The notes beneath the pieces are model-generated. The model was not told the DNA's origin. It saw only the letters and a list, made by a program, of their open reading frames with translations, and made no database searches. DNA of 64,000 bases, from positions 2,688,001 to 2,752,000 of the forward strand of contig CBDFJF010000002.1 of the NCBI GenBank assembly GCA_965248265.1, given 5' to 3'. Every line of letters begins with the position of its first letter. Position 1 is the first letter of the stretch. The position numbers and the translations under genes were made by a program. This DNA is from Candidatus Latescibacterota bacterium (GTDB taxonomy: Bacteria > Latescibacterota > UBA2968 > UBA8231). Positions 1 to 40,637 of this stretch are shown here, piece after piece.

Positions 1-1
1 G

Positions 2-1353
2 CGCGCATACCTTGAATGCGGAATTCTCGCTCACGGGCTCCTGCGAGTACGGTGCGAGGACTGCGGCAAGGATCGCGTCGTCGCGTTCTCGTGCCAGCGA
101 CGTTCCTTCTGCCCGAGTTGTATGGGACGGCGGATGGCCGACACCGCCGCCCGGCTCACCGATGAAGTCCTGCCGCGGGTGCCGGTACGGCAATGGGTGC
201 TGAGCCTGCCGTACGAGATCCGCTATCGCCTGGCCTGGGACAAAGAGCTGGTCGGGGCGGTGCTGGCCGTCTTCCTGCGTGTCGTCTACGGCTGGTATCG
301 CCGTCAGGCTCGGGCGCAGGGATATGAAGACAGTCGCTGCGGCTCGGTCACTTTCGTGCAGCGATTCGGTTCTGCTCTAAACCTCAATCCTCATAACCAT
401 GTCCTCATGATCGACGGTGTCTACGTCGACGGCGAGGACGGTCCGGAATTCGTGCCGGCGCCACCGCTGAGCGACGACGACGTGCAACAGATCGTCGAGA
501 CCACAGCCCAACGGGTGGTGCGCCTGCTGCAACGGCGCGGCCTGCTGGAAGAGGGTAATACCGATGTGCTCATGGAGCAGGAGCCGCTGCTGGCCACGAT
601 CACGGCGGCTTCGATCCAGGGCCAGGTGGCCACCGGCGACCGCGCTGGCCAACCCGTGCGCCGACGCTTGCTCGATCCGCAAGAGGGCATCCGCACGGCC
701 CCGTTGTGCTTCGCCTCCCGCGGCTTCTCCCTGCATGCGGCCACCCGCGTGCCGGCCGCCGACCGCACCCGCCTGGAAAGACTGTGCCGCTACGTCAATA
801 GACCTCCGCTGGCAGCGGGACGCCTGCAGATCCTGGATACCGAAAGAGTGGCCTTCGACTTGAAAACGGTCTGGTCGGACGGCACCTATCGAATTGAGCT
901 CTCGCCGCAAGAATTGATAGAGAAACTGGCGGCCCTGGTACCGCCAAGGCGCCTCAACCTGGTGCGCTATCACGGCGTCCTGGCGCCCAACGCCGGCGGC
1001 CGGGCACGGATCGTACCGGGCCCGAAGGAAGAGGCCCCCGAAGCGGACCCCTGTACGCATACTTCGGCGCCCACCCCCGCCCAACGACGGCACCGCCTGG
1101 CCTGGGCTGACCTCCTCCGGAGAGTTTTTCGAATAGACGTTACCGTGTGCCCCGCTTGCGGCGGCCACATGAAGGGAGTTTGCCGCAGGCAAACTCTAAG
1201 AGACCGGTCATCAGACCGGTCTCCATCGTGGCTGCTCTCACCGATCCACGTTCTATCCAATGCTATCTGGAGGGCGTCGGTCTACCGTCGCGCGCGCCGC
1301 CCATTGCTCCACCACGGCCTCATCCCCAACACGAGTTCGACTTTGCCGCCTGA
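2..1353 (+). pseudogene. IS91/ISCR-family rolling-circle (HUH) transposase; 5' end outside the window, frameshifted by a 50-bp insertion
   Basis: Frame from nt 2 reads ...CEDCGKDRVVAFSCQRRSFCPSC (Zn-binding N-domain), LNLNPHNH (HUH), LCRYVNRP (ISCR-like YxxR), RYHG and CPACGG. Removing 1175-1224 restores MK-IVAALTDPRS...EFDFAA* (stop 1353), as in the copy at 7763-7940. Confidence 0.93.
1175..1224. mobile_element. 50-bp double-hairpin mini-element inserted in the transposase
   Basis: GGAGTTTGCC-GCA-GGCAAACTC-TAA-GAGACCGGTC-ATCA-GACCGGTCTC-C. Absent from the homologous site near 7914 (GAAG|ATC). No target duplication. Related copy at 55647. Confidence 0.85.
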
Positions 1354-1574
1354 GACCGACCGGCCGGACACCGCTGCGTTCCCATCTCTCGCTGACAGCT
1401 GCCGCGGCGCCCGCAGGCGCTGATCCGGGCACCTATCCACTGTCCCATCGTTCACCGCACCACGATCAACGCACAAGCACGACCCTCAACGCCCTCGAAA
1501 AGCCCAAAAACCGCTTGACTGACTACCGATCTCTTTAGGCGAAAGAAGTCAAGGCTTCTGTCTATTCGGAGGAT

Positions 1575-1724
1575 TTCTTCAACTGGCAATAATCTCATTT
1601 CGGTCTTCAATGGAGACCTTCATACTGTTCCGGCCATGTTGAAGAAGCTGGGCCAGAGTGACGGGTTGTAACGCGGGTGATCTCCCAAGGGAGTCACGAA
1701 TCGGGAGCGGTCATCTCTGGCCAG
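1575..1724 (-). ncRNA. predicted bridge/seek RNA of IS110 type 1 (target loop 1648-1724, donor loop 1575-1646)
   Basis: Two stem-internal loop-hairpin units. Guides ATCGGGAG/TGTAA match the oriIS target; ATACTGTT/ATCTC match the element's circle junction. Confidence 0.8.
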
Positions 1725-1743
1725 TTCCTCGTTGTTCGTCCTC

Positions 1744-38561: not shown

Positions 38562-39893
38562 ATGACAAAATCACCCCAACACACCAATACTGGCTCATCC
38601 CGGAAGCGGTTGCGGAGCTATGGCGCAAGCTGTCTGATGCTCATCGGGATCATCTTCCTGAACGCATTGCCGACGCAGGCGGTTCCGCCCCCGCCGGTGG
38701 AGCGCGTGGAGATTCGCGGAAAAGCTCTCTATGTAAACGGGAAACCGTTTTTCCCGGTGAGCATAGGCTTTGTCGCGCACAATCATTATTCTCTGCCAGA
38801 GGCTGGTGAGAAGGGCTTCAATCTCGCCGAAACCCACGCAGGGACGCCACAGGCTTTCCGTATGGACATCGATGACGCCTATGCTAACGGTATGTACTCC
38901 GAGGCTTCACTCAGCAATGGTGTGTGGAAAGACCTGGAGATGGTCGAGCGGATAGTGAAGGCCTGCCGCGATGCCCCCGGACTGCTGGTGTGGGCGTTGG
39001 AGGATGAGCCCAACCATCCCAACAAACCTTCCTACAGGTATCCACCCGAGCAGTTCAAGCCGGTGGTCGACCTGATCAAGCGGCTCGATCCGCTGCACCC
39101 GGTATACCTCAACCTGGCCTGCGGACGTCTCAAGGACCATCAGGACTACCGGGATGTGGCGGACATCCACTCGGACGACATCTATCCGGTTCCCACCTCT
39201 CCCCTGGCGCATGTTGCCCAATACTCCGATAGTGTGGTGAAGGGCGCGGCGGGCGAGCCGGGCTGGCTGTGGATTCAGATGTCTCCCGTGCAGGGCCCCG
39301 GTTATATATGGGAAGGTGGCATCCCCGATCGAGCCCCGACCATGACAGAGGTCCGTTGCATGACCTATATGGCTGTGGCGCACGGCATCAGCGGCGTCCA
39401 GTACTTAGCTTTCCACTTCCAAAATAAGGGGGGCGACTGGTGGATCAACCAGTCAGAGCCGGCGTTCTGGGCGCAGTGGGCGGACCTGACGGCGGAATTG
39501 CGCCTTTTGACGCCTTACCTCTTGGCACCGGAGGCGCCCGGGCTCGTGTCGGAAATCATCGAAGGGTCCAAGGCCAGAGAACTTGGATATACAGCACTGC
39601 ACCTGTCACTGCGGCAAACTGACAGCGGCTACTTCCTGATCGCGGTCAACGGCTTCAATTCGCCGATCAAAGCTCGGTTCAAGGTTCCTGTTCCTGATGG
39701 CGGATTGGCACCAGATGGTGCTGCGGTGCGTTCTGAGCATCGACTGGTGGCCGTCAAGAATGGCGTGTTTGAAGACTCCTTTGAGCCTTATGCCGTACAT
39801 CTATACGAGATACCGTTCAAAGTGAAGTTTACAGGTCACCCCATCAAAGAGACGATCAGTTGGCCGCGGTGGCAACGGCGGCCCCGGCCGTGA
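38562..39893 (+). CDS. secreted hypothetical glycoside-hydrolase-like protein
   Basis: Signal peptide, VNGKPFFP, WALEDEP, DIYP, AVAHG. Confidence 0.7.
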   Translation: MTKSPQHTNTGSSRKRLRSYGASCLMLIGIIFLNALPTQAVPPPPVERVEIRGKALYVNGKPFFPVSIGFVAHNHYSLPEAGEKGFNLAETHAGTPQAFRMDIDDAYANGMYSEASLSNGVWKDLEMVERIVKACRDAPGLLVWALEDEPNHPNKPSYRYPPEQFKPVVDLIKRLDPLHPVYLNLACGRLKDHQDYRDVADIHSDDIYPVPTSPLAHVAQYSDSVVKGAAGEPGWLWIQMSPVQGPGYIWEGGIPDRAPTMTEVRCMTYMAVAHGISGVQYLAFHFQNKGGDWWINQSEPAFWAQWADLTAELRLLTPYLLAPEAPGLVSEIIEGSKARELGYTALHLSLRQTDSGYFLIAVNGFNSPIKARFKVPVPDGGLAPDGAAVRSEHRLVAVKNGVFEDSFEPYAVHLYEIPFKVKFTGHPIKETISWPRWQRRPRP

Positions 39894-40147
39894 CTGCGCC
39901 GGTTGGCGATGGTGGGACTTCGGAGGTCAGAAACGGTGACTGAAGCAGACGGACGTGGGCTGCTGCCAGCAGACCTTCTATCCGTCGCTTCACTCTGTGC
40001 TGACTCACTGCGGAAAGGGTATCAGGCGTTGATGGTGCTGATACCGTTGATATCTAACTCCAATAAAAGCCCTTGGAGAAACCTTTTGATTCTGCTATTC
40101 TACCGCTGATCTCAGCGCAGGAGGCCTTATTATGATCCACTATTCGT

Positions 40148-40420
40148 GTGATCTATGTGGCAAGGGTTTGCCCCCCCGAAATTCCCCGTTATGTAGTCCG
40201 CATAGGAGTTTTTGCCGCCGCCAAGCCTGACCTTGTGGACAAGCCCGACGAGGTTATTCAGGAGATGCTCGCCAAGATGGAGCAGATGTCTCTCAAGGAG
40301 ATCGAGGACGGTTCTTATCGTATTTACCGTTATGATTTATGCCGTTCGTGCCAGACCAAGTTTTTGGACAACCCGCTGACCAACACCACTCTCCTCCCCC
40401 AACTACACTCAAATAATTAG
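40148..40420 (+). CDS. small hypothetical protein (CxxC), possibly frameshifted at the 5' end
   Basis: YDLCRSC..FL.NPL; RBS and ATG at 40132 lie in another frame. Confidence 0.45.
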   Translation: MIYVARVCPPEIPRYVVRIGVFAAAKPDLVDKPDEVIQEMLAKMEQMSLKEIEDGSYRIYRYDLCRSCQTKFLDNPLTNTTLLPQLHSNN

Positions 40421-40427
40421 TCCATAT

Positions 40428-40637
40428 ATGCATAGGGAGGATAAACGGTGTTATCGGGAGTCGGTCAAGTGGGTTTTTTTTTGGATTCGATGGTGGTGCT
40501 TGCTGTCGCCAGGGCGCTTGGGTGCCGGCCGTGGGTCGGGTGGGGTGCGATGGGACCGTCGATTCGGCCTTGGGACCGGCTTGATCCGCAATGCCATGGG
40601 TGGTGCCGATGAAAATCTGAGCTTTTGTGATGGACGG
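40428..40637 (-). mobile_element. oriIS-like mini-element (copy J, 210 bp)
   Basis: Reverse complement of 21432-21641. Confidence 0.85.

Follow-up and report, generated by a model that had tools for sequence, protein, structure and literature searches.

How does a bacterial chromosome come to hold the severed ends of many insertion sequences, largely pointing the same way and separated by pieces of unrelated genes? The question is posed by a stretch of 64,000 nucleotides (the window, to which bare positions below refer) of Candidatus Latescibacterota DNA, C2:2688001-2752000 in a 7.32-Mb genome assembled into two contigs, C1 and C2, without N. Its positions 1-40637 had been described, in an original prediction made without database searches, as an array of mini-elements derived from the 3' ends of IS91-like insertion sequences (IS) and interleaved with captured gene fragments. 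We find that this span is probably an accretion zone in which rolling-circle (HUH) insertion sequences of the IS91/ISCR-like kind have piled up, and not a dedicated capture system. Here, pieces homologous to IS91-like elements that keep only their 3' end (stubs), the presumptive origin of transposition or oriIS, are clustered and co-oriented with translocated cargo at their junctions, and foreign DNA lies outside the opposite end, terIS, of full-length copies.

Predominance and clustering of origin ends

The window was mapped by blastn with five full-length IS91-like references from this genome and one stub reference (the piece at 20577); boundaries of pieces were drawn also from self-blast and a repeat search, and termini were set by alignment. 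A genome-wide blastn census, which may miss diverged pieces of either end, recovered 129 IS91-like pieces, among them 6 full-length, 59 terminus-only (3'), 5 with the 5' end only and 58 internal. The terminus-only pieces span 43-802 bp (median 168 bp), and the coverage per 5% of the reference rises from 1-7 pieces in the first nine bins to 59 in the last (n=115, a profile that omits the full copies and the pieces best matching the stub reference). The direction of this bias, towards the oriIS end, is not in doubt. The P values attached both to the 59 versus 5 contrast of ends (binomial p=9e-13) and to the 9 terminus-only pieces of window 1-41000, where 0.33 would be expected from the genome-wide density (Poisson P~1e-10), overstate the case, because duplicated stubs are not independent events. 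A single 100-kb bin (C2 2.7-2.8 Mb) holds 16 of the 59, and the minus strand carries 18 of the 19 terminus-only pieces found within C2 2.687-2.803 Mb.

Within 1-40637, besides the full-length copy A described below, blastn and terminus alignment map about 18 IS91-derived pieces, where about 17 had been claimed, and these fall into five to six sub-families, much as the roughly six foreseen. They keep 24-544 bp, which agrees with the predicted span of about 24-540 bp, except that four of them (7763-7940, 12947-13204, 14679-14743 and 38075-38414) have no terminus. As had been stated, no separate 5' piece is found in 1-40637, where copy A alone reaches the 5' two-thirds of a reference. Nine co-oriented minus-strand copies had been counted, and we place nine to ten between 3314 and 20968; the piece at 7763-7940, in their midst, is on the plus strand. 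The array itself is less continuous than proposed: pieces occur up to 40637, but the 13.5 kb from 22764 to 36251 hold none.

These counts bear directly on one alternative, namely that the locus is a passive graveyard in which full-length insertions in a tolerant, acquired region were later cut down, the cargo being leftover resident genes. It would fit the 58 of 129 pieces that lack both ends, the richness of the region in other mobile DNA (three IS110 elements, an IS3 fragment and a 50-bp element), the absence of synteny between window 1-20000 and four relatives, and a present gene order likely caused by inversion between inverted repeats. We nevertheless consider it improbable: random decay predicts equal numbers of 5'-only and 3'-only pieces, against the 5 and 59 observed, and further observations that it leaves unexplained are given with the captured DNA below.

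A second co-oriented array lies at C2:1134108-1158328, where six stubs are 92-100% identical to a full copy at the end of the array. Direct repeats of 162 bp (96%) frame it: one sits just beyond terIS of the full copy, the other just past the terminus at which the last stub ends. The cargo beside two of the array's stubs is an 88-94% copy of distant loci.

Full-length elements and the terminus read as oriIS

Copy A, a full-length IS91-family element on the plus strand, begins 480 bp outside the window (position -480), runs to 1530 and resumes at 3125-3150 with the last 26 nt of its oriIS end (matching reference positions 1764-1789 at 96%). With the full copy C2:2800206-2802007 it shares 88.7% identity, and its left end was set by comparison with C2:2802007; a recognizable left (terIS-side) end is conserved in two full copies. 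Its tnpA open reading frame (ORF; 2-1423) matches PF04986 Y2_Tnp (2.3e-27) and PF14319 Zn_Tnp_IS91 (1.5e-16) in Pfam, and is broken in its C-terminal part by a 50-bp insert (1174-1223), the element as a whole being broken again by an IS110 element (1531-3124). Uninterrupted transposase frames occur elsewhere in the genome, at C2:1156553-1157851, 1842408-1843688 and 2800551-2801834. The HUH motif NPH-x-HVL is kept in 5 of 5 aligned transposase copies, and the motif L-C-R-Y-V-x-R-P, in the four copies unbroken there, has a single tyrosine and not the two of a Y2 transposase. At ~430 aa, with matches limited to the two IS91 domains, these proteins also lack the union of Rep and Pif1-type helicase that marks Helitrons.

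Within every family the copies stop at one identical base, beyond which the DNA is unrelated. This common 3' terminus lies ~330-360 nt past the tnpA stop and is unlike the common 5' end. In IS91 and ISCR1, oriIS is placed downstream of tnpA (PMC5737581, PMC6218425), and by analogy the terminus may be read as oriIS because it has the same placement. At this end a short inverted repeat, of the GATAA-N6-TTATC type, precedes ~13 nt, and the final four bases differ among close copies (GCGC, GCAC, GAAC, GCAT, CCAT, ACGT and others), which suggests a loosely specified target. The terminus motif has 17 matches in this genome and, among 40 relatives scanned, 6, 3, 3 and 1 in four and 0 in 36; since it misses one family, these matches among relatives are not to be equated with stub counts. 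A scan of genome contigs (596 Gb) with the same motif returned at least 120 loci in unrelated phyla, and we made no use of that result, the motif being too loose.

Foreign DNA outside terIS and a proposed mechanism

Five of the six full-length copies have, 1-193 nt outside terIS, a discrete segment of 162-889 bp that is an 87.5-96% copy of another locus. At copy A the segment is 363 bp long and matches 35527-35889 on the minus strand (its source or a sister copy) at 95.9%, the homology stopping 2 nt from the left end of the element; in G015, a genome of another genus of the same family, the alignment to window 32307-35674 continues unbroken across 35527. The segment at the copy C2:1156216-1158037 starts precisely where terminus and flank meet in a sister stub, C2:1134270. 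That at C2:2800206-2802007 starts 11 nt within the terminus of another sister stub, C2:2759491, and includes the end variant private to it. Segments that start at a sister oriIS are what would be expected if overshooting replication stops at the next co-oriented origin. Neither the foreign segments at five of six terIS ends nor these sister-origin starts are explained by the cutting down of full-length insertions in place.

According to PMC13181058, IS91 gives rise to single-strand circles in which oriIS abuts terIS, and its termination fails in 1-10% of events or more. For a Helitron, PMC4778049 describes both early truncation and read-through as makers of new ends, the initiating end remaining constant. 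The combination found here, of a constant oriIS end, a variable other end and DNA beyond terIS, appears on sequence grounds to match the pattern of one-ended transposition.

With that pattern in mind, we propose that transposition would start at oriIS, downstream of tnpA, and run towards terIS. An early stop would yield a copy that keeps the oriIS end alone (24-544 bp here; 43-802 bp genome-wide), and a run past terIS, or a start from a stub devoid of terIS, would carry along the DNA on the inner side. A co-oriented oriIS upstream may act as a stop. New insertions would favor existing oriIS ends or their neighborhood, leading to a local pile-up of co-oriented stubs and cargo, which would later have been reworked by IS110 hits on oriIS ends, the arrival of the IS3 fragment and an inversion of ~17.9 kb.

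Several observations weigh against this reading. The source sites of the terIS-side segments have no element beside them now, which is not what purely replicative transposition would lead one to expect. For none of the cargo blocks was a source locus with an adjoining stub found, and the IS91 piece closest to the GH31 source described below is more than 20 kb off. The search for a stop signal at the inner ends gave CG before ~4 of 11 distinct breaks and no common tetranucleotide, too weak to be retained. A stable hairpin at the terminus was likewise rejected: although GATAA-N6-TTATC is conserved, none of five folds outperforms shuffled sequence (z +0.7 to -1.4). GAAC, the complement of GTTC and the canonical IS91 target complement, was found after the terminus once only, and because the transposases have a single tyrosine, bench results on IS91 may not transfer to them. 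Empty sites number 0 for the 129 pieces among the genome's own paralogs, and none was found for three isolated stubs, with 1.5-kb flanks, in five complete relatives, which at a core identity of ~65-76% are too distant; as a consequence, a truncated birth of the stubs and their cutting down in place are not told apart by this route.

Stubs as repeated units

From the left, the minus-strand series opens with a 24-nt oriIS-end remnant (3314-3337) directly after the terminus of the next stub. The latter, of 239 bp (3338-3576), is made up of 161 nt of an oriIS end, matching that of the full copy C2:1842307-1844071 at 99.4%, and 78 nt of unrelated DNA; it is 100% identical to a second 239-bp stub at 4496-4734. 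Then come the internal plus-strand piece at 7763-7940 (reference 1309-1483; 99.3% identical to copy A 1023-1174) and, again on the minus strand, a 544-bp oriIS stub (8846-9389; 83% identical to reference 1251-1785), a degenerate 3'-region piece with no recognizable terminus (12947-13204), a degenerate 65-nt piece of the same region (14679-14743; 82% identical to 12947-13011) and a 297-bp oriIS stub (17452-17748; 80% identical to reference 1412-1709). At 19322-19575, also minus, a 230-bp oriIS stub (19346-19575) is followed by a 24-nt remnant of the end of another family (19322-19345), 19351-19575 being 100% identical to 17452-17676. The series closes with a 392-bp minus-strand oriIS stub (20577-20968) of a family that has no full-length copy in the genome. 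Plus-strand end pieces lie near 20969-21073 and 21382-21468, and a 210-bp plus-strand stub (21432-21641, terminus at 21641) has an inverted copy at 40428-40637. Past the stub-free block there are, on the minus strand, a 285-bp stub (37791-38075; 99% identical to copy A 1266-1530) and a piece of the 20577 type that misses its last 81 nt (38075-38414), cut where the inner end of the previous stub starts.

The one 5'-end-like piece of the window lies outside the array, at 63177-63225 (minus strand): 49 nt that match positions 9-57 at the 5' (terIS-side) end of the IS91 reference with 86% identity, within a 596-aa frame that has only weak GH32/BNR matches.

Three stub types occur in two copies each that share the same inner end and differ in the DNA past it: the 239-bp type of the window, a 215-bp type (C2:1137522 and 1141662) and a 244-bp type (C2:2759488 and 2768299). 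A stub-cargo-stub layout is seen at 3338-4734, 17452-19575 and C2:1137522-1141875. Terminus remnants of 18-24 nt stand directly after another terminus in three places (3314-3337, 19322-19345 and C2:1156210-1156227), one of them belonging to a different family, and stub junctions are nested at 38075 and C2:1137733. From these remnants and nested junctions, origin ends seem to be preferred landing sites.

The same facts could be taken further, in that stubs would be active non-autonomous origins driven in trans by the genome's intact transposases, and units of cargo plus stub, delimited by successive oriIS ends, would be mobile, cassette-like modules serially integrated beside resident oriIS ends. 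We regard this as plausible though rather unlikely; several points speak for it. The stub-cargo-stub units just listed recur, and are joined by a further one, 21432-22763 with 40428-40637, once the inversion is undone. Blocks of 0.9-3.6 kb end at a terminus on one side and at the inner end of a stub on the other, the three stub types are copied with identical inner ends, and the read-through segments end at an upstream oriIS in two cases. The terminus-to-cargo junction 21641/21642 is what would be expected from a circle of the right-hand unit, and a source of transposase could lie in the uninterrupted frames of the genome. Against active origins, no unit recurs at a second place with both of its boundaries unchanged, and no circle or donor was seen among the contigs at hand, which cannot show circles. 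IS110 insertions disable three stubs of the window, and the older stubs, 70-83% diverged and in two cases degenerate, fit passive debris; the cargo also includes useless internal gene fragments.

A still stronger version has oriIS serving as both start and stop, such that the DNA between co-oriented stubs is copied out as a circle by intact transposases from elsewhere in the genome and reinserted beside an oriIS, making a Helitron-like cassette system that would shuffle genes and gene fragments without an integrase, policed by IS110 elements that home to oriIS. This is a tentative idea that we hold to be doubtful. Against the stronger form of the capture array originally proposed, the block 22764-36251 is an ordinary stub-free island shared at 85-95% with another genus, and IS110 and IS3 insertions, next to a probable inversion of ~18 kb between the 1332-bp inverted repeats, explain part of the layout. 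As to the capture array originally proposed, its oriIS polarity, the boundaries at stub junctions and the apparent read-through at five of six full copies stand, and an integron-like function is not evident.

Cargo between the stubs

The cargo blocks measure 0.9-3.6 kb and each lies between a terminus and the inner end of a stub. The clearest case of translocation is 3577-4495 (minus strand), an internal 919 bp of a GH31 gene with partial GH31 Pfam domains, which is a 96.4% copy of C2:1237880-1238799. The source sits 1.45 Mb away inside an intact 856-codon ORF, and the fragment is flanked on both sides by the 100%-identical 239-bp stubs. A graveyard of resident genes leaves such an internal copy at 96%, between identical stubs and with the gene intact elsewhere, unexplained. 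The fragment is a mosaic, in that the 401 bp by the stub terminus are 99.3% identical to the source against 96.4% overall; gene conversion is possible.

The block at 7941-8845 (minus strand) is an internal fragment of a heparinase II/III-like lyase gene, covering residues 171-473 of an 812-aa relative at 94% identity. The rest of this gene was not found elsewhere in the genome, nor was a homolog of the fragment in 40 relatives. Exactly 7939-8847 recurs at 98-99.8% (2-17 of 909 letters differ) in three seawater metagenome contigs, drawn from two studies, each time in mid-contig and with flanks unlike the window.

Other blocks are also partial. On the minus strand, 14744-15912 combines the C-terminal piece of a sulfatase, weakly matched (SGSH_C, E=0.001, short of the cut-off), with the first 98 aa of a Gfo/Idh/MocA gene (GFO_IDH_MocA, 2.7e-16, profile 1-90 of 120), and at 19576-20576 a PfkB kinase is represented by its C-terminal half (profile 148-293 of 302). 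The original prediction of cargo cut in mid-gene therefore holds for GH31, the lyase, Gfo, the sulfatase and PfkB, but not for the PhyH-family gene (13364-14227, in the plus-strand block 13205-14678; PhyH 3.9e-33, profile 3-211 of 213), which looks complete, nor for the 510-aa ORF at 17791-19323 (minus-strand block 17749-19321), which does so beside paralog frames of 500-504 codons and has no Pfam match. Apparently complete genes are likewise carried on the plus strand by 4735-7762, with a 940-aa ORF (4788-7610) that has a GH2_N-like C-terminal part and paralogs of 595-981 codons, and by 9390-12946, which has paralogs on C1 at 81% and contains a BNR/sialidase-like gene and a 475-aa ORF next to the minus-strand orfA fragment of IS3 type.

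Forty-three ORFs in all were scanned against Pfam, and among them no match to resistance-gene families and none to integrase families was found; attC was considered without a dedicated model search, and the locus does not qualify as an integron. A promoter pointing outward from the stubs was rejected as a candidate, as 3000-22000 has 4 promoter-like sites where 5.3 are expected; two of the four lie in the 239-bp stubs and point outward, which we do not count as evidence.

The inverted repeat and the shared island

The right part of the span is organized by an inverted repeat of 1332 bp. At 21432-22763 (plus strand) the 210-bp stub is joined by its terminus to a 1122-bp segment, and a 100% inverted copy of both at 40428-41758 (minus strand) runs into an intact 2-hydroxyacid dehydrogenase gene. 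The 1122-bp segment comprises the 5' parts of two divergent genes, PIG-L and 2-hydroxyacid dehydrogenase, each of which is intact at one arm. Both arms read stub, then cargo, and are therefore circular permutations of one unit. Between them, the stub-free block 22764-36251 encodes PIG-L, BNR, GH95, FG-GAP/ASPIC, TPR, PhyH, GHL10-like and GDSL proteins (Pfam).

In G015, 26509-35674 is matched at 89-95%. The order there is window 35674 down to 26509 and then 42314 up to 49613, that is, the two parts are in the opposite relative orientation, and the resulting block of ~17 kb is 85-95% identical to G015:C1:4955966-4972721. The DNA around the block in G015 shows 65-82% identity with contig C1 of the present genome, and as the block is well above this, we take it to be a horizontally shared island. 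No IS91 piece was found in the 40 kb of G015 that comprise the block and its surroundings, beyond a 42-nt weak match. A stub-cargo-stub (or cargo-stub-cargo) unit would have arisen beside the island, and recombination between the inverted 1122-bp copies probably then inverted ~17.9 kb, from 22764 to 40636; two single-inversion histories fit the permuted 1332-bp copies equally well.

Two details of the island stand apart. At the start of the GH95 gene only window 26509-26678 matches in G015, where ~1.3 kb adjoins. The frames 26855-29068 and 27958-30828 overlap in different phases and both contain FG-GAP and UnbV/ASPIC, as would a frameshifted gene or two tandem genes.

Genomic setting and assembly support

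Arrays of identical repeats invite the suspicion that collapsed or mis-joined repeats have created false junctions. Short contigs cannot establish the order of the 100%-identical repeats (225, 239 and 1332 bp), none of which is spanned by a listed contig. We deem an artefact very improbable all the same, given a genome in two contigs without N, the recurrence of the same type of junction at other loci, and the isolate's own short contigs, which bridge the unique junctions. These contigs cover 7885-8901, 12692-15946, 17464-19374 and 19354-20662 and, with 0-25 letters differing, cross 7940/7941, 8845/8846, the junctions from 12946/12947 to 15912/15913, 17748/17749, 19345/19346, 19575/19576 and 20576/20577. 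Contigs of the isolate end at 4733, 7792, 12707 and 15946; as they stop at repeats, the order around identical repeats is that of the published assembly.

The ORFs of the window code mostly for glycoside hydrolases, sulfatase-like, BNR, FG-GAP/ASPIC and TPR proteins (Pfam). Searches of the window for tRNA and Rfam families gave no hits, and the sequence composition shows no step at the array. Besides the isolate's own, the public runs that hold the window best are seawater metagenomes; contig depths, and stretches of the window lacking metagenome cover, carry no weight in our conclusions.

Other mobile DNA

Three IS110-family elements, all on the minus strand, are assigned by their DEDD_Tnp_IS110 and Transposase_20 domains (Pfam). 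One (1531-3124; both domains on ORF 1744-3018) sits in the oriIS end of copy A, another (15913-17451) lies 5-6 nt before the end of the next stub, and a second copy of the latter (36252-37790; 99.7% identical) is again in an oriIS end. They belong to two types. In type one, all four copies or fragments in which the relevant end is preserved sit in the inverted repeat of an origin end; in type two, 4 of 4 copies of at least 500 nt that keep that end sit ~5 nt before an origin end, as does a short fifth at C2:2769672. This placement suggests that IS110 elements home to the origin end. Beyond the window, IS110 copies are found in oriIS ends at C2:2659191, 2763257, 2386646, 2786741, 2652805 and 2769672.

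The 50-bp insert at 1174-1223 that breaks the C-terminus of copy A's tnpA is a double palindrome, absent from the other 9 of 10 aligned 3' ends. The genome has four copies of it (1174-1223, 55646-55695, C2:2391049 and C2:2777736), three of which interrupt tnpA at the same codon, close to its 3' end, in three diverged IS91 families and shift the frame. The IS3-type orfA fragment is at 12529-12795 on the minus strand (HTH_Tnp_1, 4e-17); around it, 12196-13523 has a very high summed contig depth in three seawater metagenomes, many contigs ending near 12700. Finally, a flank copy at C2:2777837-2779163 (99.8%) resembled a fresh capture and was rejected as one, being a 1314-bp multi-copy insertion sequence with at least 7 copies at 99.8-100%, one of them inserted in an IS91 piece.

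Significance and comparison with known systems

Rolling-circle insertion sequences are credited with the transfer of resistance and catabolic genes, and their natural leftovers are poorly charted. The present genome offers a natural sample of these: 59 origin-end stubs, two or three co-oriented arrays and five read-through captures with identifiable sources. The bias of ends resembles the 5' truncation of LINE elements, and the capture of fragments resembles that by Helitrons. If an upstream origin truly terminates transposition, this would explain the defined units found beside ISCR-type elements. Independently of this, the apparent preference of two IS110-type elements for the origin end offers a clue to how the IS110 family chooses its targets.

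In terms of known systems, the elements share with IS91/IS1294 an HUH transposase with Y2_Tnp and zinc-binding domains, distinct oriIS and terIS, a constant oriIS end, and co-mobilized DNA past terIS, found here at five of six full copies. They differ in having one tyrosine where IS91/IS1294 have two, in the variable four bases that take the place of a target complementary to GTTC/CTTG, and in that the dominant product is a short oriIS-only stub. In the literature covered, which leaves aside subscription journals and supplements, we found no description of IS91 oriIS-only stubs as a dominant product or of such arrays. A single catalytic tyrosine is typical of ISCR elements. In ISCR1/ISCR2 regions variable DNA adjoins the oriIS side (PMC6218425), and co-oriented repeated copies of ISCR are interleaved with cargo, partial copies being common (PMC7722449). 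The present arrays depart from those regions in that the unit is only the last 24-544 bp, drawn from five to six diverged families, on the chromosome of a marine heterotroph; in cargo made up of carbohydrate-active enzyme genes and useless internal gene fragments; and in a left (terIS-side) end that is recognizable in two full copies.

Helitrons are likewise rolling-circle HUH transposons with a constant initiating end, truncation and read-through, and capture of gene fragments by way of circular intermediates (PMC4778049). The elements described here differ from them in the lack of a helicase domain, the prokaryotic host, the position of the constant end downstream of the transposase gene, and the clustering in arrays. 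Translocatable-unit arrays of IS26 also have co-oriented repeats interleaved with cargo and insertion beside a resident copy, with a DDE transposase and whole copies; the repeats here come from an HUH element and consist of its origin end alone. Integron arrays are comparable in their one-directional short repeats separating gene-sized blocks; here, in contrast, there is no integrase among the 43 ORFs, the repeats do not resemble attC, many blocks consist of gene fragments or run on the opposite strand, and no common promoter is evident. The closest known counterparts are the one-ended transposition of IS91/IS1294 and ISCR-bounded variable regions, and the behavior is closest to the capture of fragments by Helitrons. 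What is distinctive here is the predominance of origin-only stubs of several diverged families, ordered in co-oriented arrays on an environmental chromosome, with internal gene fragments as part of the cargo and a sign that an origin can also act as a terminator.

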